Origin: an uncultured Actinomycetes bacterium
Lineage (GTDB): Bacteria; Actinomycetota; UBA4738; HRBIN12
Direction of reading: 5' to 3'
Assembly (NCBI GenBank): GCA_963704725.1
Contig: OY969934.1
Coordinates: forward strand, 2,656,001 to 2,720,000
Length of the DNA: 64,000 nucleotides
The notes under the pieces are model-generated. The model was not told the origin of the DNA, ran no database searches, and saw nothing but the letters and a program-made list of their open reading frames with translations. Below are positions 1 to 45,830 of the stretch, piece by piece. How positions within the stretch are numbered: the first letter of the stretch is position 1; every line of letters starts with the position of its first letter. The position numbers and the translations under genes were made by a program.

Positions 1-134
1 ATACCGCGGCGACGGGATGCCCGGGGCGCTGTCCCCCGACAGGCTTACGGCACTCACGAACACGGGAGACCGAGATCGACGCGGGTCGAAACGTCGGCAC
101 GACCGAGCCCGGCGCAGGGCGGGCGAGCGGGTAC

Positions 135-428
135 GTGCCCCGGACGCGGAGCGACGTCCTCGCGCTGGACATGGGCGACGGGGTCATCCTCTACGACCAG
201 CACTCGAGCCTGGTTCATCACCTGAACCCCTCGGCGTCGGTCCTGTGGAACCTGTGCGACGGGGAGGCGGACGGCACCGAGCTGGCCGCCGAGATCGCCG
301 AGGCGTTCGGGCTGGATCGCGACGCCGTCGCGGCTCAGGTCGAGGGCTTCATCCAGGAGCTGGACGCGCTCGGGCTCATCGAGGACGCCGGCGGGGCCGA
401 GAGGCCGACCGCGACGGACGGCTCGTGA
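135..428 (+). CDS. PqqD-family / RiPP recognition element (RRE) peptide chaperone
   Basis: 97 aa with the PqqD pattern 'DGVILYD...HHLNPSASVLWNLCDG...LAAEIAEAF...VEGFIQELDALGLI'. The frame is open back to the window start, so the true start may lie further upstream. Confidence 0.85.
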   Translation: MPRTRSDVLALDMGDGVILYDQHSSLVHHLNPSASVLWNLCDGEADGTELAAEIAEAFGLDRDAVAAQVEGFIQELDALGLIEDAGGAERPTATDGS

Positions 429-451
429 GCCCGGAGGAGGGGGAGCCGACG

Positions 452-862
452 ATGGACTCGAGGGATGGGGAGCTGAAGCGGCGCGACTTCCTGCGCCGGG
501 CCGCCGTGACGGGGATGGCCGCGGCGTGGGCGGCGCCGGTCATCCAGACGGTCGCGGCGACCCCGGCGTTCGCGCAGACCCAGGGGAGCCCCCCGTCCGA
601 CGGCGGCTGCTTCCACTCGACGGGGACGAACGGCGGCTGCATGCCCGCCTGCGCGGACCTCGCCGGCTGCGGCGGGAACCAGTGCGGCGGCAACAACCCG
701 AACAGCGCGAACGGGCCGTGCACCGCGTACTGCCCGCCGGGAGCGGGCGGCGGCAACCCGTGCTGCAACCCCGGCCTGTGCGACCCGGCCAACTTCACGT
801 GCAGCACGTCCCAGAACGGCGTGGCGACGTACAACGGGTCGCTGGCCGGCTGCGCCGGCTGA
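452..862 (+). CDS. Tat-leader, cysteine-rich secreted peptide / candidate RiPP precursor
   Basis: ATG at 452 follows a strong RBS (GGAGGAGGGGGAG). The leader has RRDFLRRAA, WAAPVI and an AFA cleavage-like site. The 95-aa Gly/Asn/Pro-rich core has 12 Cys. It lies directly after the PqqD gene. Confidence 0.8.
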   Translation: MDSRDGELKRRDFLRRAAVTGMAAAWAAPVIQTVAATPAFAQTQGSPPSDGGCFHSTGTNGGCMPACADLAGCGGNQCGGNNPNSANGPCTAYCPPGAGGGNPCCNPGLCDPANFTCSTSQNGVATYNGSLAGCAG

Positions 863-879
863 ACACGAGCGGCGGACCG

Positions 880-907
880 AGAGCGGCGGGCGTTCGCCCG
901 CCGCTCT
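880..907. terminator. Hairpin between convergent genes, likely bidirectional terminator
   Basis: Perfect 12-bp stem AGAGCGGCGGGC / GCCCGCCGCTCT with a GTTC loop, between stops at 862 (+) and 914 (-). Confidence 0.7.
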
Positions 908-913
908 TGCGCG

Positions 914-1840
914 TCAGCCCGGAGGGAATCGCTCGTCCAGGAGCTCGGCCCGCTCCGGTGGGGTCCCTCCGGCCAGCTCGAACGCCTCGGCCCGCTCCGC
1001 GACCCGCGAGAGCAGGATCACCCCCCGCTCCGCGTACCGGTACAGGTTCGTCGAGTGCGCGGCCATCCGCTCGACCGCACCGGCCCGGGTGACCGGCGTG
1101 AGCCGCGGGGGGCCCACACGATCCTCCCCGATGAACACGATCCATCGGGGGTCCGTCGGCCCCGCGACCGTCGCGCCGAGGTCCTCCGGGCGCACGTGCC
1201 TGGTGGGGAGCCCGGCGCCGAGCCCCCCGCGGTCCTCGAGGCGCTCGTGCAGGTCTCCGAAGAACGCGAGCGCCTCGTCGTCGACCGCGATCCGCCGCTC
1301 GAACGGATGGATGCGCCCGGTGACGGGATCGATCGCTCCAAGCTCGTCCGACAGGTACGAGAACCCCCGCCGAAGGAGGCCGAGGACGAGCGAGGACTTG
1401 CCCACGTCCGGCCGGGCCGGCAGGAGCATCGCCTCACCCCTCCGCTCGACGGCCCCGGCGTGGATCAGGACGAAGTCGCGGGTGCGGGCCGAGACCTCCG
1501 CGTGCAGCAACCACACGGCGTGCGCGAGAACGCCGCTCAGGTCGTGCTGCGTATAACGGAGCGCGTTCCCCACGAACAGCGAGTACAGGGGCGGGTCGGC
1601 TCCGATGTCCTGCTCCTGCACGTACAGGTCGACGGGGAAGGCCGAGACCTCCGGCGTCGCCCGGCGGAACGGCGCGAGGTGCCAGGCCAGCGCCTCGGCG
1701 AAGCCCTCGTCCGTGGATCGGACGGTGAACGAGAGCGACAGCATCCGGTAGTGATCCTCTGCGACCCAGCCCGGGTCGAAGTCGTCCACTCAGCCGCCGC
1801 CCGACCGCACCGGCGCTCGCTCGTCCGCCACCTCGCTCAC
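914..1840 (-). CDS. HPr kinase-related P-loop protein (intact Walker A) with in-frame UGA at 1790-1792, candidate selenoprotein
   Basis: HprK-like signature 'LIHAGAVERRGEAMLLPARPDVGKSSL...YLSDE'. The annotated ORF 914-1789 is preceded in frame by TGA and 13-16 sense codons (GTG at 1831 or 1840) that begin right after the upstream gene's stop. Confidence 0.8.
1759..1792 (-). promoter_or_regulatory. UGA plus SECIS-like stem-loop (kinase paralog A)
   Basis: mRNA reads UGA-GUGGACGACUU-CGACCC-GGGCU-GGGUCG: an 11-nt spacer, a 6-7 bp stem and a G-rich apical loop, extended by a 3' bulged C and U-A/U-G pairs. Confidence 0.55.
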
Positions 1841-1844
1841 CCCC

Positions 1845-2792
1845 TCACTCGTGCTCTGTCGCCGTGGTCACGAGGAGCTCGGCGGCCTCCGGGATCGACC
1901 CCACGACCAACGTGGCCACCGGCACGGAACCCAGGAGGTCCTGCATGACGAGGAACGCCCGGTCCGTCCAGATGTGCAGGTTGAGGAGGGCCTGGGTGAA
2001 CCGGAACAGCGCCTCGGCGCGCCCGATCTCCTGCAGCTCCGTGGGGCGGCCGGGCGCGAACGTGGGGAACACGATCCACCCCGGGAGCGTCGGCTCGGCC
2101 GCCGCCCCCCGGAACTCCTCGATCCGGACGGGCCGCCGGGGCGTCCTCGCCCCCAGCCTGTCGGGATCGGCGAGCAGCGTCAGGCGCCGCCGCCCCGGCG
2201 CCCGCCCCAGCTCGGGGAACAGACCGATGTCCGTGGTGTCGATCAGCAGCGGCAGGACCGAGCCGTGCGCCCGGCGCAGCACCGGGTCCAGGCTCACGAG
2301 CTCGTCGCCCAAGTAGCCCGCGCCGCGGCGAACCATCGCCCCCACGAGCGCGGGCAGGTGCGGCTCGGGAACCGAGGGCAGCAGCAGCGCCCGCTTCCCG
2401 ATCGCCACGCCGCCGGCGCGGACCCGGATGTACTCGTTCGAGTGCTGCGTCGCGAGGTCGCGGACCCCGGAGATGATCCGGCCGGCCATCTCGTCCCGGT
2501 CGACCCCTTCGAAGATCTTCAGCGCACCGATGTACAGGCGGCTCTTGCCCCGGACGACCTTTCCGCCGGCGAGCACGGTGTCCGGACCGACGTCCGCCGA
2601 GAAGTGATTGACGGCTTCGGCCCGCTCCACGCGGAACGCGCGCAGGTGGGCGCGCAGGAGCTCCAGGAAGCTCTCGTCGGTGGCGCGCACGGTGAAGCCG
2701 AGGGCGTCCACCGTGTAGTGATCCGTAGCGACCCAACCTAGCCGCTCGAGCTCGGCCTCTCAGTCGGTGCGCGGTCGGCGTTCCTCGACCAT
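1845..2792 (-). CDS. HPr kinase-related paralog with degenerate P-loop and in-frame UGA at 2760-2762, candidate selenoprotein
   Basis: Aligns by eye with the neighbouring kinase (GWVATDHYTVDALGFTVRATD vs GWVAEDHYRMLSLSFTVRSTD; YLGDE vs YLSDE). ATG at 2792 has an AGGGGG RBS and reads MVEERRPRTD-TGA-EAELERLGWVATDHY into the annotated ORF 1845-2711. Confidence 0.75.
2723..2762 (-). promoter_or_regulatory. UGA plus SECIS-like stem-loop (kinase paralog B)
   Basis: mRNA reads UGA-13 nt-AGCGGCU-AGGUUG-GGUCGCU, then a bulged A and 3 more pairs. The apical loop is 20 nt from the UGA and is encoded with codons rare at this GC content (CTA GGT). Confidence 0.55.
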
Positions 2793-2855: not shown

Positions 2856-4220
2856 TCAGCTCGACGGCGCCCAGATGGGTCCGACGCAGTCGTCGCGCAG
2901 GGGGAGCACGGCCGGCCGTCGTGGCTCCCGATCGAAGTCGAAGGCCGACAGGAGGGGCGTCGCGTCGCGATCGCGATGGGTGAGCTGGGTGAGGCCCCAA
3001 TTGTCCTCGATGAAACGTAGCACGCTCGAGAACTCCCCCAGCTCGCTCGAGACCAGGCCCTGCTTGGCGTACGGGCTGATCAGGAGCATCGGGACGCGGA
3101 TCCCGAAGCCGAACTGGTCGACCTGAGGCGGCGGGACGTGGTCGTAGAAGCCCCCGTAGTCGTCCCACGTGAGGAAGATCGCGGTGTCCTTCCACATGGG
3201 CGAGCGCATGATCGCGTCGATGACCTTCGTGCTCCAGTTCTCGCCGTGGCAGAAGTTGAACTCCGGATGCTCGGACAGCTCGAATCGCGGCGTGATCCAC
3301 GTGACGGGCGGCAGCAGCCCCGCCCGGATGTCGTCGATCACGTTGTCGACCGGGTAGATGTGCCGCTGCCAGCGATCGGGATGCATGCGATACCGGTGGA
3401 TCGCGCTGTACGCGGACCAGATGTACCCGCGCTGGTCCTCCTGCGCCGCGTAGTACGCCCACGGGATGCTCGAGCGCGTGAGCAGGTCGCCCTCGGTGAG
3501 GAAGTCGAAGCAGGGCGCGACCATCTTGATCTTGCCCTCGCTGTCGTGCACCTCGACGAGCTGCTGGGCCGGGGCGTCGCACCCGAACGTGTTCGAGCCG
3601 CGGGTCGAGGGGAGGCTCCGTCGCGGGTTGTCGACCGCACCGCCCGAGGTGGCCGCGATCGAGTAGAGGTGGTTGGGGAACGACGGCCCCTGGGCGCTGG
3701 CGAAGAAGTTGTCGAACAGCACGAAGTCCTGGGCCCACGTCCAGTAGTTGGGGAGCTGGTCGCGGACGAGCTGCGAGTACGCCCACTCGGGGTTCTCGCC
3801 CTGCCAGAACCCGTCCATCGCGCCCTCGTTCCAGGCCTCGAGCGCGCACTGGTAGCAGTGTGGCAGGTCACCCGGCAGCCGCCCGTCGGTGCCCGGGATG
3901 AGGGGCCACGCCCGCCCGTCTCGCCGCCCCACGCTCACGCCGTTCGCACCGGGGAACGTGCCGAACAGGTTGTCGAACGTCCGGTTCTCCTTGATCAGGA
4001 ACACCACGTGCTTGATGGGGAACTCGGTCGGCAGCGAGCCGGCATCGAAGGCCTCGGGCGCCCCCGTCGTGATCACGCTCGGACTCGCCGACGCCGAGGG
4101 GGAGGCGGAGGGCGACCGCTGCGAAGCGTCGTCGCCGCCGTCGCAGGCCGCCGCGACCAGCGCGAGGGCGAGGAGGACGGCCGCCCAGCGAAGGGCGCGC
4201 GGGCTACGGGGGTGCCGCAT
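2856..4220 (-). CDS. Phosphoesterase / phospholipase C-family lipoprotein
   Basis: '[20 protein letters not shown]', 'GPSFPNH', '[15 protein letters not shown]', '[12 protein letters not shown]'; lipobox LVAAAC. Confidence 0.9.
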
Positions 4221-4301
4221 CGGTGCGAGGACGGTAGCAGCCCGACCTCGATCGGATCGGCCGGCCGGCCCGGTGATCGATCCCCCCGCCGACGCGCGCG
4301 G

Positions 4302-5135
4302 TCAGAGCGAGCCCAGCACCCCCCGGATCGAGGTGTCGAGCGGAGGGAACGGCGGGAGTCCGAGGTGTGGGACGAACGCGCTCGTCATCGCGCTGTACCG
4401 GGGGCGGGGGGCCCGCAGCGCGAGCTGGTCGGCCCGCTGCTCCTGCACGGTCCCCGGCAGGCCGGCTATCGATCTCGCCCGCGTCAGGACCTCGAACCAC
4501 GTCGTCGGCTCGGGACCGGCCAGGTGGTAGGTGCCGAAGCGGCCGGTGAGCGCCAGCGGGAGCAGGCGCTCGGCCAGGTCCCGCACGAACGTCGGGGTGC
4601 CGACACGGTCGACCAGACCGCCGGCGGGCTCCCCCACCGCCAGCCGGCGGAGCGCCCCGGTGAGGAAGTCCGTTCCCCCGCCGAACACGTACCCCGTCCG
4701 CACGACGAAGGACTCGGGCGCGAGCGCGCGGACGTGCCGCTCGCCGGCGAGCTTGCTCCGCCCGTACACGCTCAGGGGCCCGGTCGCGTCGAGCTCGTCG
4801 TACGGCGCGCCCTTCGCGCCGTCGAACACGTAGTCGGTCGAGACGTGCACCAGCACGGCGCCGGTCGATCTGGCCGCCAGCGCGAGCGACTGCGGACCGA
4901 GGGCGTTGTCACGCGCCGCCCGCGCCGGATCCGCTTCGCACGCGTCGACCTGCGTGAAGGCGGCTGCGTTCACGATCAGGTCGGGCGCGAGCGGCACGAG
5001 CGTGCGCATCACCGCGTGATGGTCGCCGACGTCGAGGTCCTCGTGCCCGAACGGATGCAGGTCGTGATGCGACGGACAGGCGTCGAGGAAGGCCCGCCCG
5101 AGGCCGCCCCCGGCCCCGGTCACGGCGATCCTCAC
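4302..5135 (-). CDS. rfbD: dTDP-4-dehydrorhamnose reductase
   Basis: 'VTGAGGGLG', 'NAAAFTQVDACE', 'STDYVFDG', 'YGRSKLAGE', 'APRP'. Confidence 0.92.
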   Translation of the reverse strand: MRIAVTGAGGGLGRAFLDACPSHHDLHPFGHEDLDVGDHHAVMRTLVPLAPDLIVNAAAFTQVDACEADPARAARDNALGPQSLALAARSTGAVLVHVSTDYVFDGAKGAPYDELDATGPLSVYGRSKLAGERHVRALAPESFVVRTGYVFGGGTDFLTGALRRLAVGEPAGGLVDRVGTPTFVRDLAERLLPLALTGRFGTYHLAGPEPTTWFEVLTRARSIAGLPGTVQEQRADQLALRAPRPRYSAMTSAFVPHLGLPPFPPLDTSIRGVLGSL

Positions 5136-5154
5136 GCGGGAGCCTCCGTTCGGC

Positions 5155-6132
5155 TCACGCGGGCGCCCCCGCGAGCACCTCGCCCACCCAGTCCTGGTGG
5201 TCGCGGTACCAGGCCAGCGTGATGGCCAGCCCGTCCGAGAACGGCGTGGCCGGTCGCCACCCGAGGCCATCGAGCCGATCCCACCGCAGGCCGTACGCGA
5301 GGTCGTGTCCGGGTCGGTCGGGCACGAAGGTGACGAGGCCTTCGTCGACGCCGAGGTAGGAGCAGATGCGCTTGGCCAGCTCGAGGTTGGTCATCTCGGT
5401 GCCGCCGCCGATGTTGTAGCTCGTGCCCGCCTGGCCGTGCTCGAGCACCAGCCCGACGGCCCGAACGAAGTCCCGGACGTACAGCCACTCCCGGCGGTTG
5501 CGGCCGTCGCCGTACACGGGGATGGGAAGTCCTTGCAGCGCAGCGTTCGCCCACGTGGGGATGGCCTTCTCCGGGTGCTGCCGCGGGCCGAACGCGTTCG
5601 TGCCCCGGATCGTCGTGACGGGCAGGCCGTAGGTGATCGCGTACGAGCGGCACAGCAGGTCGGCGCCGGCCTTGCTCGCCGCGTACGGGTTCCGGGGAAG
5701 CATGGGAGCGTCCTCGCCGAACGGCTCGGACTCGCTCGACCCGTAGACCTCGTCGGTCGACACGAACAGCAAGGGCTTGCCCAGCTCGCGGCACGCCTCG
5801 AGCACGACCTGCGTGCCGAGGACGTTCGAGAGCACGAACGCCCGGGCGTCGTCGATGCTGCGGTCGACGAAGGACTCGGCGGCGGCGTGAACGACCTTGT
5901 CCGCCCACTCGACCAGACCGACCACGTCCTGCGGGACCGCCACGTCGCCGAGCACGAAGCGGAACCTCGGATCGGGCTCGTGGTGGACGAGGTTCCGTCG
6001 CGTACCGGCGTACGTGAGCTTGTCCAGCACGGTGACGTCGGTGGTGGGCCGCTCGAGCAGCAGGTCCACGAGGTGGGAGCCGATGAAGCCGGCCCCTCCC
6101 GTGACGAGGACGTGCTCACGACGCTCGGCCAT
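5155..6132 (-). CDS. rfbB: dTDP-glucose 4,6-dehydratase
   Basis: 'VTGGAGFIGS', 'LDKLTYAG', 'AAESFVDRSI', 'VSTDEVYG', 'YAASKA', 'DRPGHD'. Confidence 0.93.
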   Translation of the reverse strand: MAERREHVLVTGGAGFIGSHLVDLLLERPTTDVTVLDKLTYAGTRRNLVHHEPDPRFRFVLGDVAVPQDVVGLVEWADKVVHAAAESFVDRSIDDARAFVLSNVLGTQVVLEACRELGKPLLFVSTDEVYGSSESEPFGEDAPMLPRNPYAASKAGADLLCRSYAITYGLPVTTIRGTNAFGPRQHPEKAIPTWANAALQGLPIPVYGDGRNRREWLYVRDFVRAVGLVLEHGQAGTSYNIGGGTEMTNLELAKRICSYLGVDEGLVTFVPDRPGHDLAYGLRWDRLDGLGWRPATPFSDGLAITLAWYRDHQDWVGEVLAGAPA

Positions 6133-6145
6133 GGTGCGCCCGAGT

Positions 6146-7306
6146 CTACCGGCGGTGCCCTGCGCCGGCGCCCGCCGCCTGCAGCACCTCGGCCGTGCGC
6201 CGGGCCGTCTCCTGCCACGTGTACGCCCGGACCCGTTCGGCCCCGGCGCGGCGCAGCCCCTCCCGGAGCCCCTCGTCGCGCAGGAGGCGATCGAGGCCGT
6301 CGGCGATGGCCGCGGCGTCGAGCGGATCGACGAGCAGCGCGGCCCTCCCCGCCACCTCCGGAAGCGCGGAGGTGTCGGCCGTGAGCACGGGGAGCCCGGC
6401 GGCGAACGCCTCCAGCACGGGGAACCCGAAGCCCTCGTGGAGCGACGGGTACGCGAGCGCCTCCGCCCCGGCGAGGAGCGCACGCTTGTCCGCCTCCGAG
6501 ACGTAGCCCGTGAGGACGACGCGCCGGCGGACGGCCTCGGGGAGCTTCTCGACCGCCGCCCGCAGCCGCCCGGCCTCGTCGGGGATCCAGTTCACCTCAC
6601 CCCCGGCGATCACGAGCCAGGCGTCGGTACCGCAGGCGCGGAACGCCTCGACGAGCCGGACCAGGTTCTTGCGGGGGTCGATCCCTCCGACGAACAGCAC
6701 GTACCGCCCGCCGATGCCGAACCGTTCGCGGACGCCCGCGACCTCGGCCGGCGGCGGCGGCACGAACGCCTCCGCGCCGTGGGCGATCGCGTGGATCCGG
6801 GCCGGGTCGACGTCGTCGTGATGGACCAGGAGATCGCGTCTCGCGCTCTCCGACGGGACGATGACGCCTGCCGCTCGGCGCAGCCATCGACGGAACACCC
6901 GCCGCCAACGGGCGTCGATCTGCGGAGCCATCTCGGGGAAGCGCTCGTACGCGAGATCGTGGACGACGAGCACGACCCCTCGGCTCCTCGTGGCCGGGGG
7001 CAGGAAGTTGGTCGCCAGCAGCGCGTCGAAGTCCAGCCGCAGCCACTCGAGGCGCGGCATCCCGATCCGCCACGTGACCGGCTGGAACACGCGCGCGGGG
7101 AAGCGCGACGGATGCTCGGTGAGGTTCGGCGCGAGGCCCTCGAAGAACCGGCGCCGCGTGACCAGGCCTTTCGCGTGGAGGTACCAGGCGACGTACTCGG
7201 GCAAGGGGTCTTCGGCCGGGAGGTGCCGGAGGATCTGGCGCGTGTAGTGGCCGACGCCGGTGCCGTGCGGATCCAGTGCCGGGCGCGCGTCGATCGCGAT
7301 GCGCAC
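6146..7306 (-). CDS. Glycosyltransferase family 4 (GT-B)
   Basis: 'TGVGHY', 'VHDL', 'PRKNL', 'YPSLHEGFGFPVLEAFAAGLPV'. Confidence 0.9.
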   Translation of the reverse strand: MRIAIDARPALDPHGTGVGHYTRQILRHLPAEDPLPEYVAWYLHAKGLVTRRRFFEGLAPNLTEHPSRFPARVFQPVTWRIGMPRLEWLRLDFDALLATNFLPPATRSRGVVLVVHDLAYERFPEMAPQIDARWRRVFRRWLRRAAGVIVPSESARRDLLVHHDDVDPARIHAIAHGAEAFVPPPPAEVAGVRERFGIGGRYVLFVGGIDPRKNLVRLVEAFRACGTDAWLVIAGGEVNWIPDEAGRLRAAVEKLPEAVRRRVVLTGYVSEADKRALLAGAEALAYPSLHEGFGFPVLEAFAAGLPVLTADTSALPEVAGRAALLVDPLDAAAIADGLDRLLRDEGLREGLRRAGAERVRAYTWQETARRTAEVLQAAGAGAGHRR

Positions 7307-7312
7307 GCCGGT

Positions 7313-8371
7313 TCAGTCGACCTCGACGCGACTCTGGTCGCCGATCACGAGGCGCTGGACGCCCTCCACGCCGGAGTGGCGGACCTCGGCGTTGCGTCCC
7401 AGGATCGAACCGCGTACCGTCCGCACCCCCTCGATGCGCGAACCCTCCATCGCGATCGAGTCCTCGACGCGGCTCGAGGCGACGACGCACGACGCCGACA
7501 GCGCGACGTCGGGTCCGAGAGTGGAGTCCTCGACGAGCGAGCCCGCCCCCACGATCACCGGCCCGACGATCGTCGACCGCACGACCTTCGCGCCGGCCTC
7601 GACGACGACGATCCCGGACAGCTCCGACGCCTCGTCGACCTCTCCCGCGATCCTCGGCTCAAGAACCGAGAGCATCATCCGGTTCGCCTCGAGCAGGTCC
7701 TCGGGGCGGCCGGTGTCCTTCCAATAGCCCGTCACCATCTCGGCCCGGACGGTCCGGCCGTGATCGATCAGCCACTGGATGGCCTCGGTGATCTCGTACT
7801 CGCCCCGCCACGAGGGCTTCAGGGTCGCGGCGGCCTCGAGGATCGAGTCGTCGAACAGGTACACGCCGACGAGCGCGAGGTCCGACAGGAACTCCTTCGG
7901 CTTCTCGACCAGCCGGACGACCCGGTCGCCCTCCAGCACCGCCACGCCGAAGTGCTCGGGCTCGGGTACCCGGGCCAGGAAGATCTGCGCGTCGGGCCGG
8001 TGGCGCTCGAACTCCTCGACGAAGCGCCGGATCCCGCCCATGAGGACGTTGTCGCCGAGGTACATCACGAAGGGCTCGCCTCGGACGAAGTCGGCGGCCG
8101 TCGTCACGGCGTTCGCCAGTCCGAGCGGCGCCGGCTGGTGGATGTAGGTCACGTCCAGGCCCCACGCCGAGCCGTCGCCGACCGCTGCCCGCACCTCGTC
8201 CGCGGTCTGGCCGACGACGAGCCCCACCTCGACGATCCCGGCCTCCGCGATCGCCGACAGCACGTGGAACAGGATCGGGGTGTTGGCAACCGGGATCAGC
8301 TGCTTCGCGTTCGTGTGGGTGATCGGGCGGAGCCGGGAGCCCTCCCCGCCCGAGAGGACGAGCGCTCTCAC
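7313..8371 (-). CDS. rfbA: Glucose-1-phosphate thymidylyltransferase (long form)
   Basis: 'LSGGEGSRLRPITHTNAKQLIPVAN', 'YLGDN', 'VEKP', 'WKDTG', C-terminal beta-helix. GTG 8371 overlaps the upstream stop. Confidence 0.9.
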   Translation of the reverse strand: MRALVLSGGEGSRLRPITHTNAKQLIPVANTPILFHVLSAIAEAGIVEVGLVVGQTADEVRAAVGDGSAWGLDVTYIHQPAPLGLANAVTTAADFVRGEPFVMYLGDNVLMGGIRRFVEEFERHRPDAQIFLARVPEPEHFGVAVLEGDRVVRLVEKPKEFLSDLALVGVYLFDDSILEAAATLKPSWRGEYEITEAIQWLIDHGRTVRAEMVTGYWKDTGRPEDLLEANRMMLSVLEPRIAGEVDEASELSGIVVVEAGAKVVRSTIVGPVIVGAGSLVEDSTLGPDVALSASCVVASSRVEDSIAMEGSRIEGVRTVRGSILGRNAEVRHSGVEGVQRLVIGDQSRVEVD

Positions 8372-9792
8372 GTGGGGCACTCTACCTGTGGACCGGTCTG
8401 CGGCGCAGGGATCCGGTAGCCGCCCGTGATGACGACCGCCACGTCCTGGCCGACCGGCAGCGTTCCGGGGGGCGCCGGGACGAGCTCCAGGTTGGGGAAG
8501 TACGTCCCCACGACCTTGGCCATGTCCTCGGTGCCCTCGCGATACAGGATCATCGCGCCCTTGCGCGGCGCGTCGACCGCCGATGCGTCGACGATCCCCG
8601 GAGACGTGTTGAACCCGCCCTCGGTGAGCACCGTCGACACCTCGGTCGCGACGCCGCCCGACCGCTTGTCCACGACGGAGACGACGATGTTGGCGGGCGA
8701 GGGGGCGACGCCGGCGAGCTCGAGGCCGAGGTCGCCGAGCGGCTGGTTGTCGCGAAGCCGCCTGAACAGCTCATTCGCGTCCGGCTGCACCATGTTCACG
8801 ATCGACAGGAACGTGCCGTTGCTGTCGTAGATCCCCGCGGGGGTGCTCGGCACGGAGCGGAAATCGGCGTTGTCCGTCCCTACGCTGCCGAGCTGGTCCG
8901 CGAGGTACACGAGGTCGGCCACGTTCATCCCCTCGTCGACGACGAGGTTGTCGAGGAGCTCGGGGACGAGGCTCGGCAGGTGGAGCAGCTCTCCCGGTTG
9001 GAGCAGCTTGCTGATGACGGCGCGCAGGAACTGCTGCTGTCGTCCGATCCGGGCGAAGTCGGGGACGCGGTCACAGGGTTGATGGCGTGTCCGCACGTAC
9101 GCGAGCGCCGTGGCCCCGTCGAAGTCCTGGCACCCGGCGCCGATGTCCAGCCCGGTGAGCTCGTCCTGCATCGGATAGGGGACGCACATCCGGACGCCGC
9201 CCAGCGCGTCCACCAGTCCCTCGAAGCCGGCGAGCGACACGTACATCACGTGGTGGACCTGCATCCCGGTGATCTGCGTGACGGTTCGCGCGACCCTGGC
9301 TGCCCCGGCGCCCTTGATACCGCCCGAGAACGCCGAGTTGATCTTGCCCTGCCCCATCCCCGGGATGTCGACCCACAGATCGCGTGGGAAGGACAGGAAC
9401 GTCGCCTCCTTCTGACCGGGGCGCGTGTGGACCAGGATGATCGTGTCGGAACGATTCTCGCCGCCGATGTCGGCGTTCGTGCCGAAATGCTCCTGCTCCT
9501 GCGCGGAGAGCCCTTGCCGCGAGTCGCTCCCCAGCAGGAGGTAGTTGCAGGCGTGCGTCGCGCACTTGCCCAGGATGTCGTGCACGTCGGGCTGCGGCGA
9601 GCCCGAGGGCACGGGCGCGTCGACGATGTCGATCGTCTGTCGCTGGGCGTTCGCCCAGACGTACGCCCCCATGCCGACGGCCGAGCCCAGCATCACGAGC
9701 GCGGCGAACGCGGCAGAGGCGCCGAGCAGCGTGCGGCGCAGGTGGGGATGCGGGTGGCCCTGTCGTGCGGGCGTGGCGGGTCCGTCGGACAT
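8368..9792 (-). CDS. LCP (LytR-CpsA-Psr) glycopolymer transferase with LytR_C domain
   Basis: N-terminal TM, 'LLLGSDSR', 'RSDTIIL', 'SFPRDLWV', 'ALAYVRTR', 'DFARIGRQQ'. Confidence 0.9.
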   Translation of the reverse strand: MSDGPATPARQGHPHPHLRRTLLGASAAFAALVMLGSAVGMGAYVWANAQRQTIDIVDAPVPSGSPQPDVHDILGKCATHACNYLLLGSDSRQGLSAQEQEHFGTNADIGGENRSDTIILVHTRPGQKEATFLSFPRDLWVDIPGMGQGKINSAFSGGIKGAGAARVARTVTQITGMQVHHVMYVSLAGFEGLVDALGGVRMCVPYPMQDELTGLDIGAGCQDFDGATALAYVRTRHQPCDRVPDFARIGRQQQFLRAVISKLLQPGELLHLPSLVPELLDNLVVDEGMNVADLVYLADQLGSVGTDNADFRSVPSTPAGIYDSNGTFLSIVNMVQPDANELFRRLRDNQPLGDLGLELAGVAPSPANIVVSVVDKRSGGVATEVSTVLTEGGFNTSPGIVDASAVDAPRKGAMILYREGTEDMAKVVGTYFPNLELVPAPPGTLPVGQDVAVVITGGYRIPAPQTGPQVECPT

Positions 9793-9847: not shown

Positions 9848-11782
9848 GTGACGATCGTGTGGCAACCCACCGAGGCCTACCTGGAGCGCGCCAACGTCAC
9901 GCGCTTCATGCGGGCCAACGGCATCGAGACGGAGGAGGAGCTGATCCGGCGCTCGACGACGGACGTCGCATGGTTCTGGGACGCGGTCGTGAAGGACCTC
10001 GGCCTCGAGTTCTTCGAGCCGTACGACCGGGTGCTGGACGTCTCGAACGGTCCCGAGTGGGCGACGTGGTTCGGGGGCGGGACCGTGAACCTGGCGCACG
10101 ACTGCGTCGACCGATGGGCCGAGCGCACGCCGGACGCCATCGCCGTGATCTGGGAGGGCGAGGAGGGCGGGGTCCGGCGCGTCACCTATCGAGAGCTCCG
10201 CGAGACCTCGGACGCGCTCGCGAACGGGCTCGTCGCGCTCGGCGTCGGGACCGGCGACGCCGTGGGGATCTTCCTCCCGATGTGTCCGGAGGCCGTGGCC
10301 TCGGTCATGGCGTGCTCGAAGCTCGGTGCCGTGTGGCTGCCCATCTTCAGCGGGTTCGGCGCCGACGCCGTCGCCACGCGACTGGCCGACGCCGAGGCGA
10401 AGGTGCTCATCACGGCGGATGGCTTCCCCCGTCGCGGCCGCCAGGTCCGGATGAAGGAGGTCGCGGACGAGGCGGTCGCCCTCGCGCCGACCGTGGCGCG
10501 CACGGTGGTGGTCCCCCGCCTCGGCCGCGACGATGTCCCGTGGGACGCGTCGCGCGACGTGATGTGGCAGCGCCTCCTCGACGAGCACACCGGGCCGTTC
10601 GAGACCCGACATCTGGATCCCGAGCATCCGCTGTTCGTCGCCTACACGAGCGGGACGACCGGCCGGCCCAAGGGCGCGGTGCACGTGCACGGAGGCTTCC
10701 TGGTGAAGATCGCCGAGGAGGTCGCGTACCAGGCCGACGTGCATCCCGGCGAGATCCTGTTCTGGTTCGCCGACCTCGGTTGGATCATGGGGCCGTGGGA
10801 GGTCGTCGGCGCCACGGCGCTCGGCGCCACGGTCTTCCTCTACGACGGCGCGCCGAACCACCCCGGACCCGACCGGCTGTGGTCGATGATCGAGCGCCAC
10901 CGGATCACGCACCTCGGCGTCTCGCCCACGCTGGTCCGCGCGCTGATCCCGGCCGGCGAGGAGCCGGTCCGGAGCCACGACCTCTCGTCCCTGCGGATCC
11001 TCGCGTCGACGGGCGAGCCGTGGAACCCCGAGCCCTACCGGTGGTTCCTCGAGGAGGTCGGCAGGGGAGACCTCCCCATCATCAACCTGTCCGGTGGGAC
11101 CGAGGTCGGCGCGTGCTTCCTCTCGCCTCATCCCATCAGCCCGTTGAAGTCGTGCTCGCTGCGGGGGCCGGCGCTCGGCATGGACATCGCCGTCTACCGG
11201 TCCGACGGGACCGAGGCCGCGGCCGGCGAGGTCGGCGAGCTAGTGTGCCGCAAGCCGTGGCCGGCCATGACCCGAGGCCTCCGCGGCGACCCGGAGCGCT
11301 ACCTCGACGCGTACTGGCGGCGATTCCCCGGGGTGTGGACGCACGGAGACTGGGCCAGCGTGGACGAGGACGGCTTCTGGTTCCTCCACGGCCGCAGCGA
11401 CGACACGATGAACGTGGCCGGCAAGCGGCTGGGGCCCGCGGAGGTCGAGAGCATCCTCACGCTCGACACGCGGATCGCCGAGTCGGCCGTCGTCGGCATC
11501 CCCGACGAGCTGAAGGGGGAGGCGATCTGGTGCTTCGTCGTGGCGCGTCCCGGCGTCGAGCCCGAGGAGGGTCTGGGCGAGGAGCTCCGGGCGCTCGTGG
11601 CCCGCCATCTCGGCAAGGCCTTCCGCCCGAGCCGGATCGTGTTCGTGCCCGAGCTGCCGAGGACGCGCTCGGCGAAGATCCTGCGCCGAGCCATCCGGGC
11701 CACCGTCGCCGGCGAGGACCCCGGCGACCTCTCCAGCCTGGAGAACCCCACGGCCATCGAGGCGATCCGAAGCGCCGTCTGA
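9848..11782 (+). CDS. AMP-forming acyl-CoA synthetase (acetate-CoA ligase family)
   Basis: 'YTSGTTGRPKG', 'SGGTE', 'GRSDDTMNVAGKR', 'PRTRSAKILRR'; GGAGG RBS before GTG 9848. Confidence 0.9.
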   Translation: MTIVWQPTEAYLERANVTRFMRANGIETEEELIRRSTTDVAWFWDAVVKDLGLEFFEPYDRVLDVSNGPEWATWFGGGTVNLAHDCVDRWAERTPDAIAVIWEGEEGGVRRVTYRELRETSDALANGLVALGVGTGDAVGIFLPMCPEAVASVMACSKLGAVWLPIFSGFGADAVATRLADAEAKVLITADGFPRRGRQVRMKEVADEAVALAPTVARTVVVPRLGRDDVPWDASRDVMWQRLLDEHTGPFETRHLDPEHPLFVAYTSGTTGRPKGAVHVHGGFLVKIAEEVAYQADVHPGEILFWFADLGWIMGPWEVVGATALGATVFLYDGAPNHPGPDRLWSMIERHRITHLGVSPTLVRALIPAGEEPVRSHDLSSLRILASTGEPWNPEPYRWFLEEVGRGDLPIINLSGGTEVGACFLSPHPISPLKSCSLRGPALGMDIAVYRSDGTEAAAGEVGELVCRKPWPAMTRGLRGDPERYLDAYWRRFPGVWTHGDWASVDEDGFWFLHGRSDDTMNVAGKRLGPAEVESILTLDTRIAESAVVGIPDELKGEAIWCFVVARPGVEPEEGLGEELRALVARHLGKAFRPSRIVFVPELPRTRSAKILRRAIRATVAGEDPGDLSSLENPTAIEAIRSAV

Positions 11783-38572: not shown

Positions 38573-39787
38573 GTGATCTTCGTCGGCATCGATTGGGCCG
38601 AGGCGCGCCACGACGTCTGCGTGCTCGATGATCAAGGGCACGTCGTGGCCAAGGGGCGAGTGCCTGACGGCGTGGAGGGCCTCGGCCTCCTGCACGCCAT
38701 GGTGGCCGATCACGCGGAGGACCCGACCGAGGTGGTGGTCGGTATCGAGCTCGACCGTGGACTGCTGGTGGGATCTCTCGTCGAGAGTGGCTACCACGTC
38801 TACGCGGTCAATCCCTTCTCGGTCTCGAGGTACCGCGATCGCCACGCGACCTCCGGCGCCAAGTCCGACCCGGGCGATGCGAAGGTCCTCGCCGATCTCG
38901 TACGCACCGATCGGCAGAACCACCGGGAGGTGGCCGGCGACACCGAGCTCGCCGAGGCAATCAAGGTGCTCGCCCGGGCGCATCAGTCGTTCGTCTGGTC
39001 GCGCCAGCGGCAGGTGAACCAGCTCCGGAGCATGCTTCGAGAGTTCTACCCGGGTGCGCTGCAGGCGCTGAGCGGTGATCTTTCTTCCCACGAGGCGTGC
39101 AGCATCTTGGGAATGGCCCCCACGCCTGAGTTGGGACGACGTCTCACGCGCTCGAGGATCCGGCGCTCCCTCGCTGGCTCTGGTCGCTCACGCAACCTCG
39201 ATCGGAAGGCGGAGCAGATCTATGAGGCCCTGCATGCTCCTCAGCTGGAGGCCCCGTCTGTGCTGGCCGAGGCCTACGGGGAGGTCGTCGGCTCGCTCGT
39301 GCTCGTGATCGATCGCCTCACGCACCAGATCGGACAGCTGGAGCGCCAGCTCGCCCAGCGTTTTGAAGGTCACCCGGACGCCGAGATCCTGCGCAGTCTT
39401 CCCGGACTCGGCCTGATCCTCGGCGCCCGGGTGCTGGCGGAGTTCGGGGACGACCCGACCCGCTACGAAGATGCTAGGGCGAGGAGGTGCTATGCGGGAA
39501 GCGCCCCGGTCACCAGGGCTTCGGGAAAGCGGCTCGTCGTGCTGGCCCGGGTGGCTCGCAACCGCCGCCTCGCCGACGCCTGTTACCTCTGGGCCTTCTC
39601 CGCGCTCAGTGCCTCGCCGGGCGCTCGTCGCTACTACGACGCCCGACGGGCTCGAGGAGCCACCCACCACCAGGCGCTGCGCGCGCTCTCGAACCGCCTC
39701 GTCGGCGTCCTTCACGGGTGCCTCCGACACCGGAGTCACTACTGCGAGGAGATCGCTTGGCCAGGCTCGCTCGATGCCGCGGTTTGA
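38573..39787 (+). CDS. IS110 family transposase / recombinase
   Basis: DEDD RuvC-like residues (GIDWA, GIE, KSDPGDA) and C-terminal 'YAGSAPVTRASG' with the catalytic Ser; RBS AAAGGAGGAG. Confidence 0.95.
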   Translation: MIFVGIDWAEARHDVCVLDDQGHVVAKGRVPDGVEGLGLLHAMVADHAEDPTEVVVGIELDRGLLVGSLVESGYHVYAVNPFSVSRYRDRHATSGAKSDPGDAKVLADLVRTDRQNHREVAGDTELAEAIKVLARAHQSFVWSRQRQVNQLRSMLREFYPGALQALSGDLSSHEACSILGMAPTPELGRRLTRSRIRRSLAGSGRSRNLDRKAEQIYEALHAPQLEAPSVLAEAYGEVVGSLVLVIDRLTHQIGQLERQLAQRFEGHPDAEILRSLPGLGLILGARVLAEFGDDPTRYEDARARRCYAGSAPVTRASGKRLVVLARVARNRRLADACYLWAFSALSASPGARRYYDARRARGATHHQALRALSNRLVGVLHGCLRHRSHYCEEIAWPGSLDAAV

Positions 39788-39808
39788 CGTCTTCGGGCCG
39801 TGGGATGT

Positions 39809-42091
39809 CTAGACGAGCACGGCCGTGCTCCGGCGCCGCCCCGTCTTCTGCACCAGGATCGAGGCGGGGAACTGGTCCTTCACCCGCTCGGCGTGCGTGA
39901 TCACGAAGAGCTGGTGGAAGCGCGACGCGAGCCTGCCGAGCGCGAGGACCATGAGGTCCTTGCGCTCCTCGTCGAGCGAGGCGAGGACCTCATCGAGCAC
40001 CATCATGCCGACGTCGGCGCCCGAGACACGGGAAAGGTGCGTCGAGATCGCCACCCGCAGGGCGAGGTTGGCGAGGTCGGTCTCGGAGCCCGAGAACCGC
40101 CCGATCGGGAAGTACGTGTCGCCGTCGGCGATCTGGATCGACAGGGTCTCCTCGTCGACCCGGAGGTCGTCGTACTCGTGGTTGGTGAGCTCGCGGAACA
40201 GCGACTCGGCCTCTCGGGAGAGCTCGGGGCCGACGCGCCCCACGAGGTGGTCGCGGAACCCGTCCAGGAGCATCGCCACGCGCTCGACGTAGCGAGCCTC
40301 CGACCGCAGCTCCTCGACCTTCGCCTGGATCTCCCTCGCGCGCTCCAGACCCGCGGCGAGCTCGGCCGCTCGCTTCTCGGCGTCCTTGCGCGCGTCGCTC
40401 GCGGTCCGTTCGGCCGCGCGAGCGGCCTCCAGGATGGCGGAAGCCTCCTCGCAGGCCGAGCGGAGCCGCTCGTGCTCGCCCTGGTCGAAGGCCAACCCCT
40501 CGGCCTCCTCGGCGAGCGCGGCCAGCTCGTCCTCGAGCGCGCCCAGGCCGTCCTCCGCCGCCGCCAGGTCGCCCGTCGCGGTCTCGAGATGCTTGCGCTC
40601 GACCCCGAGCTCGGCGACCCGCGCGGCGAGCTCCCTGGCCCGGCCCGCCCGCGCTCGGACCTCGTCCACGTCGGGGATCTCCTGCCCGAACGGCTCGCCG
40701 AGCAGCACGACCTCGGCCCGCATCGTGGCGACCCCCTCGGTCAGCCGCGACCTCGCAGCGCCGGCCTCCCGGGCGGCCCGGCCCGCCACCGCGGCGACAC
40801 GGTGCGCCCGCTCCGCCCGGTCGAGATCGGCGGCCGCGCGCTTCGACGTCCCGTCCGCGGCCTTCGCCGCCTTCGCCGCGTCGGCCGCCGCCGCCCGGCA
40901 GTGCCTCACGTAGTCGGCGAAGTCCGAGCCGAGGGGACGGCCGCACGTGGGGCACGGCTGCTCCGGATCCGCCTCCGCCGTGTGCGCCAGCCGCTCCTCG
41001 GCCTCCCCGAGCGCGGCTTGGCGCTGCCCCAGCTCCGCCTGCGCTTCGGCGGCGGACGTCCGTGCCGCGGCGAGGGCGGCGTCGGCCTCCTCGAGCCCCG
41101 CCTCGGCGGCCTCGACGTCGGGCTCCGGCTGCCCGGCGAGCTCGAGCTCCGCAGCCGCCAGCCGCTCGGAGGCCTCGGCCAGCCGGGTCGCCGCACGCAA
41201 CCGCTCCTCCACGTCGCCGAGCTCTCGCAGCTCCTCGTCCAGCGCCGGAAGGTCCTCCAGGTCGGCGGCCAGCACGTCGACCCGCTGGACCAGCGCGTCT
41301 CGCCGCTCGACGAGCGCGTCGCGCTGCTCGACCTTGCCGGCCAGGCGAACCGTGAGCTTCTCGACGCGCTCGCGAACGGCGTCAAGGTCGGCGAACGCCC
41401 GATCCGCAGCCCGGGCGGCCGCGGTGGCCGTGCGCAGCTCTGCCGCGGCGGCGGTCGATAGCTTCTTCGCCTCGCCCGCCGCTTCTTTCGCGTCCTTCAG
41501 CTCCGCCTCGAGCGCCGCGAGGTCGCCCACCGCCTCCGCCAGCTGGACCGCGCCGGCCTTCGCGGTCCGGGACTCCCGGCGGGCGGCGGCCCTCGCGTCG
41601 TCGACGGGCTTGATGCCGAGCAGCCGAAGCGCCATCTCCTTGCGCTTGCCCGGCGTCACCTCCGAGAACGCGTCGAGCTGCTTCTGCTCCGCATAGACGG
41701 AGGCCTTGAAGATCGGCAGCTCCATGTGCAGGAGGCGACGGACCTCGGCGTCGACGTCGGTGGTGCCCGAGGCGAGCAGGAGGTCGCCGCCCGAGAGCTC
41801 GGCCTCGGGCGTGTGGCCGCGGCCCTTGAGCGAGCGCCGAACCTCGTAGTGCTGCCCGGCGTGCTCAAACACGAGGCGGATCTCGCAGTCGGTGAGGACG
41901 CCGTGGGTGCGGATGGCCTGCTTCTCCGTCCGCGCGGCCTTCACCCCGTACAGGGCTAAGGCGATGGCCTCCAGGAGGGAGCTCTTCCCGCTTCCGTTCT
42001 CGCCGAACACGCCGATCACCCGCGCCGGGAGCTCGAGGTCGACCTCCTCGAACACACGGTAGTTGCGCAGCGACAGCTCCAGGACCCTCAC
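39809..42091 (-). CDS. Rad50/SbcC-type SMC ATPase
   Basis: Walker A 'GENGSGKSS', Q-loop, coiled coil with zinc hook 'CPTCGRPL', signature 'FSGSE', Walker B 'MVLDE..SLD', 'ITH'. Confidence 0.92.
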   Translation of the reverse strand: MRVLELSLRNYRVFEEVDLELPARVIGVFGENGSGKSSLLEAIALALYGVKAARTEKQAIRTHGVLTDCEIRLVFEHAGQHYEVRRSLKGRGHTPEAELSGGDLLLASGTTDVDAEVRRLLHMELPIFKASVYAEQKQLDAFSEVTPGKRKEMALRLLGIKPVDDARAAARRESRTAKAGAVQLAEAVGDLAALEAELKDAKEAAGEAKKLSTAAAAELRTATAAARAADRAFADLDAVRERVEKLTVRLAGKVEQRDALVERRDALVQRVDVLAADLEDLPALDEELRELGDVEERLRAATRLAEASERLAAAELELAGQPEPDVEAAEAGLEEADAALAAARTSAAEAQAELGQRQAALGEAEERLAHTAEADPEQPCPTCGRPLGSDFADYVRHCRAAAADAAKAAKAADGTSKRAAADLDRAERAHRVAAVAGRAAREAGAARSRLTEGVATMRAEVVLLGEPFGQEIPDVDEVRARAGRARELAARVAELGVERKHLETATGDLAAAEDGLGALEDELAALAEEAEGLAFDQGEHERLRSACEEASAILEAARAAERTASDARKDAEKRAAELAAGLERAREIQAKVEELRSEARYVERVAMLLDGFRDHLVGRVGPELSREAESLFRELTNHEYDDLRVDEETLSIQIADGDTYFPIGRFSGSETDLANLALRVAISTHLSRVSGADVGMMVLDEVLASLDEERKDLMVLALGRLASRFHQLFVITHAERVKDQFPASILVQKTGRRRSTAVLV

Positions 42092-44784: not shown

Positions 44785-45830
44785 CGGTTCAGCACCTCGT
44801 GGAAGTCCTGGAACAGCAGCTCGACGTCGTCCTGTCCCATCCCCCGGCGGGCCAGGGCGTCCCGGAACGAGCGGCGGACGTCGACGACGTCGTAGCCGGT
44901 GACCCGGGCCGCCTGGTGCGCTCGGGCGAGCGGGTACGGATAGCCGACGAACGCCGGGTCGTCGGCGAGCGCGGCAAGCCGGCCCAGCACCGCGGCGGGC
45001 GGCTCCGGCCCCCGCGCCACGTCGACGCGGAACGCGTGCGGCGCGGTGGGCGCGAGATGGGCCACGAAGATATCGCCGATGTAGAGCCTGCCGAAGATCG
45101 GGTCCGTCGAGATCCGGGCCGCCCACCGCGTCGGCCCGACCTCGCGGTCGCCCCGCCGCTTCAGCAGCGTGACGAGGGGCGCGTTCCTGCCCCAGTACAG
45201 GGTGGACGCCTTCACGACGCCGGCCAGCGAGACGCCGCGGGCCACGGCCGCGGCGTGCACCCGCTGCACCACCACCTGGGGGACGAGGGGGCCACCGTGG
45301 AGCGAGCCGTCCACGAGCACCAGGTCGCCCGGCGAGGCCTCGGCCACGGTCGCCCCGACCGCCGCCCACTCGGACCACTCTCGGAGCGCGTCGACGGGCC
45401 GCGGCAGCTCGGGCAGGCGCTCGGGCTCGGCCCCGCAGAGCTCGGTCAGCGCGGAGCGAGCCAGACGCGCCATCTCCTCCGGCGAGACCGCCCGCACGAC
45501 GAGCTGCGGCCGGTCCACGCCCACGGTGGCGCCGCCGGAGAACCGGACCCGGGCCGCCCGGTACGCGGCGACCTGGAATGAGCGCCCGTCGGCCACCACG
45601 CACGACCCGCCGTCGACCGCCCACACGGTCCCTGGGTCGGCCGGCTCGACCGGATCCAGCTCGTAACCGTCGGGGTGGCCGGGAACCACGAGCGCCTCGT
45701 CGAGCCCGAGCTGGCCCTCGAGCACGTGGATCTCGGAGGCGGGACGCTCGAGGAGCTCCACGACGAACGTAGCGGCCTCGTCCAACCGACCGGGCTCGAC
45801 GAGGTCGAGGCTGAGCACTCGCGCCTCCAC
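44781..45830 (-). CDS. nurA: NurA-family nuclease
   Basis: 'WAVDGGS', 'VLVDGSL', 'GVVK', 'GYPYPLARAH'; ATGA overlap with herA; start approximate. Confidence 0.85.
   Translation of the reverse strand: MEARVLSLDLVEPGRLDEAATFVVELLERPASEIHVLEGQLGLDEALVVPGHPDGYELDPVEPADPGTVWAVDGGSCVVADGRSFQVAAYRAARVRFSGGATVGVDRPQLVVRAVSPEEMARLARSALTELCGAEPERLPELPRPVDALREWSEWAAVGATVAEASPGDLVLVDGSLHGGPLVPQVVVQRVHAAAVARGVSLAGVVKASTLYWGRNAPLVTLLKRRGDREVGPTRWAARISTDPIFGRLYIGDIFVAHLAPTAPHAFRVDVARGPEPPAAVLGRLAALADDPAFVGYPYPLARAHQAARVTGYDVVDVRRSFRDALARRGMGQDDVELLFQDFHEVLNR

Follow-up and report, generated by a model that had tools for sequence, protein, structure and literature searches.

A four-gene cassette from an uncultured Actinomycetes bacterium appears to combine features of ribosomally made, post-translationally modified peptide (RiPP) biosynthesis with twin-arginine translocation (Tat) and selenocysteine (Sec). 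The window analysed here comprises 64,000 nt (contig OY969934.1, positions 2,656,001 to 2,720,000), and the cassette, four genes and a hairpin, occupies its positions 135..2792. It encodes a RiPP recognition element (RRE), a Cys-rich precursor with a Tat leader, and two HprK-related proteins, K1 and K2, each with an in-frame UGA codon near the 5' end. We favour, with a probability of roughly 55%, the interpretation that this is an RRE-guided protein-modification unit similar to the gene clusters for linear polyphosphorylated peptides (LPP; LppA/K/B/S/D/N) in Paenibacillus alginolyticus (PMC13381572), that it is coupled to Tat export and that two selenoproteins drive it. Judging from the sequences compared, selenium would appear to lie in the two kinase-like enzymes and not in the peptide.

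The sequence-only reading of this DNA had described a standalone PqqD gene followed by a 136-aa peptide with RRDFLRR, WAAPVI and 12 Cys, and the coordinates, Pfam and TIGR04353 agree with that description. It had also reported two kinase-like proteins. Both are indeed HprK-related, but the plain open reading frames (ORFs) were too short: the genes run from 1831 to 914 and from 2792 to 1845, and the second encodes a pseudokinase. The features of the cassette are as follows.

135..428, plus strand: standalone RRE (PqqD fold) of the HPr-rel-A system type (PF05402, TIGR04353); true start possibly 5' of 135
452..862, plus strand: precursor, 136 aa, with a hybrid Tat/RRE leader (residues 1-41) and a 95-aa core with 12 Cys
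479..493, plus strand: twin-arginine motif RRDFL, residues 10-14
527..544, plus strand: predicted RRE-binding motif WAAPVI, with W26 at -16 from the predicted signal-peptidase site AFA/Q (A41)
587..592, plus strand: Ser46-Pro47, at core position +5, where phosphorylation is predicted
878..909, no strand: G+C-rich hairpin between convergent genes, probable bidirectional terminator
914..1831, minus strand: K1, 305 aa, kinase of HprK/PEPCK fold that has His, Walker-A GKS and SD[ED]; Sec14 is predicted in its flexible N-terminal tail
1762..1778, minus strand: SECIS-like hairpin of K1
1790..1792, minus strand: in-frame TGA of K1, codon 14, after Gly-Gly
1845..2792, minus strand: K2, 315 aa, paralogous pseudokinase (no Walker-A Lys, Arg for His, GDE); predicted Sec11
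2727..2746, minus strand: SECIS-like hairpin of K2, weaker than that of K1
2760..2762, minus strand: in-frame TGA of K2, codon 11; ATG start at 2792

Conserved in-frame UGA codons

A genome scan with the K2 alignment retrieved 16 related loci (L001-L016), all in metagenome-assembled genomes (MAGs) of Actinomycetota, giving 17 loci with the window. K2 has a TGA nine codons before a conserved Trp in all 17. In K1 the TGA precedes the equivalent Trp by eight codons in 14 of the 17 loci, with Cys in L011 and neither TGA nor Cys in L010 and L012. Upstream in-frame starts with a Shine-Dalgarno-like match were found for 17/17 K2 and 12/14 K1 genes, and downstream starts with such a match for 1/17 and 2/14, respectively. 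Sequence variation 3' of the TGA falls mostly at third codon positions, the residues directly after it being conserved as protein. Homologues with Cys at the TGA position were retrieved for both paralogues (P0197 for K2; L011, P0447 and P0468 for K1), and no TAA or TAG occupies the site in any of the 31 genes. Most of the 120 K1 matches start too late to show this site, most database relatives of K2 are called with late, uneven starts, and most public protein calls for K1 and K2 begin 3' of the UGA. In a K1 tree of 28 rows, which left out L008 and whose bootstrap was not fully settled, TGA-bearing genes are found on many branches, the Cys forms make up one clade and the loss is confined to one nested clade. 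Comparative evidence of this kind makes it very probable that Sec is inserted into K1 and K2 by UGA read-through.

Two further explanations were rejected. An altered genetic code does not fit, as TGA ends 121 of 173 long ORFs in these DNAs, and neither does sequencing error, as the codon is present in 31 genes. In L008, K2 is frameshifted at about position 10300, which reflects either an assembly error or a pseudogene in that MAG.

SECIS-like hairpins and the selenocysteine machinery

The hairpin downstream of the K1 UGA, a putative selenocysteine insertion sequence (SECIS), is under selection. Its consensus folds at -10.4 kcal/mol versus -4.8 +/- 1.0 kcal/mol for synonymous recoding, and none of 1000 controls was as good. 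Within it, 13/14 genes use CCA, which makes up 12 of 265 Pro codons elsewhere, and 12/14 use GGT (20 of 286 elsewhere); these counts come from related genes and are not independent. The K2 hairpin has a consensus of -1.7 kcal/mol, reached by 1 of 500 synonymous controls, and contains rare CTA and GGT codons.

Rfam retrieved no SECIS or tRNA-Sec in the window or in the seven of 16 loci scanned. ARAGORN detected no tRNA-Sec in the 16 loci and made a single call in the window, a tRNA-Pro at 10209-10289 that lies inside an acyl-CoA synthetase gene and is probably false. The available text of a preprint (10.64898/2026.04.03.716425) places Sec machinery in another actinobacterial lineage, so the use of Sec here is plausible.

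K1 and K2 share with known selenoproteins an in-frame UGA with coding sequence on both sides, a hairpin with a G-containing loop 17-21 nt downstream (weaker for K2), and Cys homologues. According to the accessible portions of the catalogues, SelD also has its Sec within a flexible loop at the N-terminus, and the listed selenoproteins include a SelO-like pseudokinase. In the selenobacteriocin entry, which is RiPP-related, Sec is located in the precursor, unlike in the kinases here. Table 1 of PMC13188914, which lists 119 prokaryotic selenoprotein families as of 2026, names no HprK/PEPCK-fold kinase and no RRE-linked modifying enzyme, and the accessible parts of PMC12013277 and PMC13326102 name no HprK-like selenoprotein. 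None of the terms kinase, HprK, PqqD, ATPase and P-loop matched in the searchable part of the BSepDB supplement, outside of which the family table may lie. K1 and K2 would thus be two unlisted candidate selenoprotein families, with an HprK/PEPCK-type kinase and pseudokinase fold, outside the 2026 catalogue. If this holds true, Sec would be found in a RiPP-type modifying enzyme and not in a redox enzyme or a precursor.

K1 is a likely kinase and K2 a pseudokinase

K1 and K2 are paralogous (profile comparison probability 100 over 282 columns), and both score below the TIGR04352 cut-off of 200 bits, at 88.6 and 58.4 bits. The K1 model has a mean predicted local distance difference test (pLDDT) score of 90.5, but residues 1-16, among them the Sec site, are disordered (pLDDT <50). 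It adopts a PEPCK fold (Z 15.4, root-mean-square deviation (rmsd) 5.0, 276 aligned) and resembles HprK (Z 12.1, rmsd 3.2, 132 aligned). Among 120 K1 relatives, GK[ST] is present in 107, the His in 99 and SD[ED] in 116, while K2 relatives retain GK[ST] in 1/117 and have Arg in place of the His. Lasso peptide kinases need a His-Lys-Asp-Asp motif, according to the available part of PMC9266682; in K1 it reads His-Lys-Asp-Glu/Asp, and the catalytic residues that can be named are His124, Lys145 and Asp162. Since the catalytic motifs are kept in K1 and lost in K2, K1 is likely a kinase and K2 its pseudokinase partner. From the gene pairing alone, we infer that the two form a complex.

The sequence before the Sec is poorly conserved, with no partner CxxU/UxxC motif. 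A second Cys, in the motif FSADCG, is present in 42/64 K2 relatives, and the nearest Atlas clusters of K2 are annotated 'HprK-related kinase A' (0.96). His/Asp-rich tails, typical of metal-binding tails, precede the Sec or Cys of K1 in L002, L003, L004 and L011.

The precursor family

The precursor core is rich in Gly and Asn (G21, N11, S7 and T7 among 95 residues). The leader pattern RR...[WYF]xxPx[ILVM] is present in 92/94 near relatives and in 138 of the best 150 among 423 distant representatives, which were defined at 50% identity. The family has the signature of a Tat substrate, namely an RRxFL motif (75/94 near relatives; 92/94 for a looser RRx-hydrophobic-hydrophobic), a hydrophobic stretch and an AxA site, and the Tat profile TIGR01409 matches 56/69 aligned members at E<=0.1. 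C-terminal to the twin-arginine motif, the leader consensus reads WAAPV[IV]QTVAATPAFA. An aromatic residue lies at -16 from the AxA in 85 of the 89 near relatives that have both motifs; the AxA closest to this spacing was taken for the count, and the cleavage site is deduced from the AxA motif.

The alignment column of Ser46 is Ser or Thr in 69/69 precursors. A [ST]P dipeptide occurs 14-26 residues after the Trp in 86/92 near relatives, in 106/138 distant ones and in 19/22 Cys-free cargoes, while the next 13 residues hold one in only 3 near and 12 distant relatives. The likely phosphosite, as far as conservation can tell, is thus one Ser/Thr just past the leader and not the many Ser/Thr of the core.

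The number of Cys is even in 92/94 near relatives and in 115/127 Cys-bearing representatives, and C105 and C134 are lost jointly (r 0.82). This parity and the joint loss argue for disulfides rather than thioethers in the core. His55 is conserved in 63/69 aligned precursors. The sequence-only reading had considered Cys or selenium chemistry on the peptide; thioether or radical-SAM chemistry finds no support in the even Cys counts or among the neighbouring genes, and selenium is predicted in the kinases instead.

The cargoes of distant relatives vary from tails without Cys to folded domains; one carries a sortase-like end. The precursor model (pLDDT 68) is confident in the core only and gave no Foldseek match (best Z 2.4), which does not establish a new fold. 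A sequence search of the PDB returned nothing useful for K2, K1 or the precursor. An Atlas match to the methylamine dehydrogenase light chain, ranked 19 at 0.90 with 117 shared features and a low recognition score, was rejected as a Cys/Tat likeness.

The RRE and its predicted binding site

The product of 135-428 belongs to Pfam PF05402 (E 2e-14) and scores 46.8 bits with TIGR04353, for which the cut-off is 35. The nearest solved relatives of its profile are LppB (9X8Z_B, the best PDB match, E 7.5e-5) and TfuB1 (6JX3). Its frame is open to the window edge (window 3-134, plus strand), and relatives extend further N-terminally. Before GTG 135, the sole start-like codon is an ATC at 75, behind GGGAG and near the point where the G+C content of third codon positions climbs from 0.65 to 0.88. 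Translation from a non-canonical start 5' of 135 is therefore possible.

WxxPx[IV] is a documented RRE motif that occurs in lasso-type leaders. Co-folding of the RRE with leader residues 1-50 scored 0.47 versus 0.26 for the best control, with runs agreeing in at least 98% of contacts and a partner pLDDT of at least 65. This mark is reached by 116/157 solved complexes and 2/215 mismatches, values of at most 0.60 comprise 18 of the 157 and both mismatches, and complexes like this one are already solved. The model thus weakly supports an RRE-leader interaction. The proposal of the sequence-only reading that WxxPxI is an RRE motif inside a Tat signal is supported by the documented motif and its LPP-like register, and weakly by this co-fold. 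If correct, an RRE motif built into a Tat signal peptide means that RiPP machinery could tag folded exported proteins. In a separate match (P0215), an HprK-like kinase domain and a PqqD domain are found in one predicted protein, the middle of which may be frameshifted.

Genetic linkage

The peptide gene lies head-on next to K1 in 13/16 loci, the remaining three ending at K1, and all 13 adjacent cargoes are Cys-rich. The RRE is encoded in 10/16 loci, the complete set of the 10 whose sequence continues for over 4.3 kb beyond the peptide. Starting from the peptide instead, 27/45 matches on contigs of at least 3 kb co-occur with a K1 or K2 match on a contig of identical size, a proxy for the same contig; control searches with shifted sizes gave a mean of 0.25. 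Such peptides are tightly linked to PqqD and kinase genes.

Around 15 loci, 106 of the 126 candidate ORFs were scanned with Pfam (E<=1e-3, the five best families for each protein); L008, the ORFs of the peptide and the RRE and an incomplete ORF were not included. NTP_transf_5 was detected in 5/15 loci and is fused to a family 4 glycosyltransferase (GT4) in three, where the fusion gene lies beside the peptide gene (L003 12594-14798, L006 10437-12650 and L016 12469-14676). The window, whose left side is cut, has no NTP_transf_5 gene. Sugar or polysaccharide genes are found in 10/15 loci. Among the 106 neighbouring ORFs, we detected no radical SAM protein, lasso cyclase, B2 peptidase, signal peptidase or ABC exporter, and in the window no archaeal-type signal peptidase, MsbA-like ABC exporter, macrolactam synthetase or B2 peptidase. 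Of the enzyme genes that the sequence-only reading had suggested looking for nearby, the nucleotidyltransferase was found in those five related loci, whereas radical SAM, peptidase and ABC exporter genes were not detected in the ORFs scanned.

Several loci hold further genes of possible relevance. LuxR-type regulators are encoded just upstream of K2 in many of them, and c-di-GMP-I riboswitches were retrieved in two of the seven loci scanned (L003 4669-4752 and L006 4066-4146), within the polysaccharide loci that hold the cassette. In L005 (10745-12924), tatA, tatC, an LPXTG protein and a sortase are encoded at a distance of about 5 kb from the cassette and close to Pup-proteasome genes; tatA/tatC are near in this one of 15 loci. 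L012 (18062-20927) contains, about 1.5 kb apart, a second, divergent, leader-bearing Cys-rich peptide and a third HprK-related kinase. This kinase has an intact GKT and is cut by the locus end, so that its N-terminus lies outside the sequence.

Comparison with known systems

No match to a characterised RiPP class had been found in the sequence-only reading; LPP clusters turn out to be a close working analogue. Both have a discrete lasso-like RRE, an HprK-like kinase with intact motifs (here K1) and no cyclase. An NTP transferase, which LPP clusters have as well, is encoded in 5/15 related loci but not in the window, whose left side is cut. In LppA, which is polyphosphorylated on Ser+3, Y-16 and P-13 form the leader motif (PMC13381572), and the cassette places an aromatic residue at -16 and Pro at -13, in the same [Y/W]xxP register. 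Further similarities are a residue with a hydroxyl group a few positions past a cut of signal-peptidase type, a conserved N-terminus with variable cores, and an association with polysaccharide loci.

The differences are also clear. LPP clusters are found in Bacillota and the present cassettes in Actinomycetota, where the leader is a Tat signal with an AxA site and neither a dedicated signal peptidase (LppS) nor an MsbA-type exporter is found nearby. Two paralogues are present, one of them a pseudokinase, and Sec is predicted in both. The motif is WxxP and not YxxP, the Ser/Thr stands at +5 followed by Pro and not at Ser+3, and the core is large and of disulfide type. The LPP leader consensus YxxPxVLxHQxIxFETxxS does not describe the cassette leader. 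The cassette probably works like an LPP cluster, but leader consensus, peptidase and exporter set it outside that group. The Tat signal with its AxA site would stand in for the LPP peptidase and exporter.

Phosphorylated lasso peptide systems of the paeninodin/pseudomycoidin type (PadeK, ThcoK, PsmK and PsmN) share the WxxP motif, an HprK-like kinase with His-Lys-Asp-Asp and, for 5/15 related loci, a PsmN-type NTP transferase. In pseudomycoidin, PsmN is required for the hexose on the phosphate, according to the available part of PMC6993621. The NTP-transferase/GT4 fusions found in nature are relevant to the way in which PsmN-type enzymes attach sugar to peptide phosphates. However, neither a macrolactam synthetase nor a B2 peptidase is encoded near the present cassettes (15 loci and the window), the site lies near the core N-terminus and is not a C-terminal Ser, and the 95-aa core, the Tat leader and Sec have no counterpart there.

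HPr-rel-A systems (TIGR04352, TIGR04353) resemble the cassette in the RRE, which exceeds the TIGR04353 cut-off, and in the proximity of K2 to the 'HprK-related kinase A' clusters, but K1 and K2 lie far under the TIGR04352 cut-off. In a Sphingomonas HPr-rel-A example (L017 6978-9601), an RRE, a kinase and a nucleotidyltransferase are encoded behind a 161-aa protein with an RR...AxA leader; this leader lacks WxxP, and one kinase is listed in the locus. Tat cargo may be general for HPr-rel-A cassettes, and the present cassette offers a direct test of the function of these orphan systems. We found no publication on such an RRE/Tat/HprK/Sec system in a literature search that ran without most subscription journals.

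Proposed mechanism

In the favoured LPP-like scheme, SECIS-directed UGA read-through would produce K1 and K2 with Sec in a flexible N-terminal tail. The RRE, whose motif and linkage are observed, would bind W26-x-x-P29-x-I31 within the signal peptide. K1, probably with the dead K2 as partner, would then add one or more phosphates to Ser46, five residues past the cut, by analogy with LppK, PadeK and PsmK. Where an NTP_transf_5 or NTP_transf_5-GT4 gene is present, the phosphate may be capped with a sugar, as with PsmN. The protein would exit by Tat and lose its leader to a housekeeping signal peptidase at AFA/Q. The product is expected to be a disulfide-rich miniprotein of about 95 aa, which may form part of a surface polysaccharide or biofilm matrix. 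The weakest step is the role of Sec, for which our best guess is a selenol-disulfide exchange that acts before export and controls the redox state of either the Cys-rich cargo or the kinase pair. The scheme can be tested in a laboratory host, with Ser46, W26, P29 and K1 His124/Lys145/Asp162 as named targets.

A number of observations weigh against this scheme. On the selenium side, Cys homologues are rare (1/119 K2 matches, and 2/120 K1 matches plus L011, with the K1 cases all in one clade), and among the 120 K1 relatives examined one has Trp and one Gly at the Sec site. K1 Sec/Cys is dispensable in L010 and L012, since neither residue is present there. TGA is also the terminal stop of 14/16 K2 genes. 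In the window, a GTG directly follows the K1 TGA, so K1 could start there, and five close relatives are called from that GTG. The K1 hairpin of the window itself uses common codons, while covariation in the K2 hairpin is not significant (equalled by 162-363 of 500 shuffles) and its single-sequence fold is ordinary (z 0.2-0.3). The consensus bacterial SECIS rule of PMC13188914 (section 5) is passed by 14/14 K1 and 16/17 K2 genes, but also by 159/200 random TGA sites, and was discarded as evidence. No tRNA-Sec or sel gene was detected within the window or the related loci, the search having covered these stretches alone. On the side of the precursor, LppK did not accept Thr (PMC13381572), yet Thr occupies the Ser46 column in 45/69 relatives. 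The window precursor (P0001) falls just below the Tat profile cut-off (15.7 vs 16.7 bits). The same Cys core is found behind Tat-like leaders without WxxP in P0244, P0251, P0259 and P0261, and the core can therefore do without the RRE. Lastly, the loci were retrieved through K2, so linkage was measured mainly from the kinase side.

A bolder version of the favoured scheme is selenium-dependent, RRE-addressed tagging. A kinase/pseudokinase complex with two Sec would read the Tat/RRE leader, its selenols would set the cargo disulfides in the cytoplasm, and a phospho(glyco) tag would be placed at a fixed post-signal site, the leader being a general address for hundreds of unrelated surface proteins (423 representatives). 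We consider this version less likely than not. If true, RiPP logic, Tat export, phosphoglycosylation and selenoenzyme chemistry would come together in a single new route for sorting proteins.

Alternatively, phosphorylation and export may proceed as in the favoured scheme with Sec being regulatory, so that it either senses redox conditions or metals on the kinase pair or serves as a selenium-dependent translational gate for both enzymes. The disordered tail around Sec, the poorly conserved sequence before it and the lack of a CxxU/UxxC motif are compatible with this, as are the loss in one K1 clade, the His-rich tails of four loci and the fact that known LPP and lasso kinases are described without selenium. 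On the other hand, P0197 and an entire clade of K1 have kept Cys at the site, something that a mere translational gate would not require, and every adjacent cargo is Cys-rich. We consider a regulatory Sec rather unlikely, somewhat below the bolder version above.

Less likely still is a metal-loading or quality-control machine for the Tat substrate, in which the RRE is a signal-peptide chaperone and the P-loop pair loads metal through its Sec/Cys and His tails, with no phosphorylation. Tat exports cofactor-loaded proteins with private chaperones, and the Tat leader, the conserved His55 and Cys of the precursor, the Sec/His tails and the FSADCG Cys of K2 could all serve such a function. The fold, however, is that of HprK/PEPCK and not of a metallochaperone NTPase, and the even Cys counts and pairwise loss fit disulfides. 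The [ST]P is retained even in Cys-free cargoes, and the NTP_transf_5 neighbours match phospho-glycosylation systems.

We give an equally low weight to the reading of the UGA as the true stop of a short upstream ORF, with the kinases starting downstream, the hairpin regulating translation and the cassette being an ordinary HPr-rel-A/LPP-like one without selenium. TGA is the commonest stop, and the lack of Sec machinery in the stretches searched, the GTG start in the window and its close relatives and the weak K2 hairpin would all be explained in this way. K2, however, has no conserved downstream start, and in 4/17 genes none is present within 29 codons of the TGA. Protein-level conservation right after the TGA, Cys read-through homologues of both paralogues and the lack of TAA or TAG are likewise difficult to reconcile with a stop. 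A classical Cys-modified RiPP (thioether, sactipeptide or lasso-type) with its missing enzymes left of the window is highly improbable: the RRE, the Cys-rich core and the position of the cassette at the left edge would suit it, but the Pfam scan showed no radical SAM, cyclase or B2 peptidase in the 11 related loci that extend past the peptide on that side, and the Cys parity also argues against it.

Other features of the window

The hairpin at 878-909 is very stable (-38.8 kcal/mol; z -4.4 on one strand and -4.2 on the other; 0/200 shuffles equally stable). It probably acts as the shared terminator described in the sequence-only reading, but it has no T-run, and for this reason a terminator scan of the window made no call there.

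To the right of K2, and in the same orientation as K2-K1, the window encodes a phosphoesterase-family lipoprotein, rmlD-, rmlB- and rmlA-like dTDP-rhamnose genes, a GT4 and an LCP phosphotransferase (2856-9792, minus strand). The last of these could be a candidate for joining glycans to the phosphorylated surface protein. Further along, at 38573-46245, an IS110 transposase, a match to the Ms_AS-4 small RNA (39397-39478) and a HerA-Mre11/SbcD-Rad50/SbcC-like gene trio were detected.

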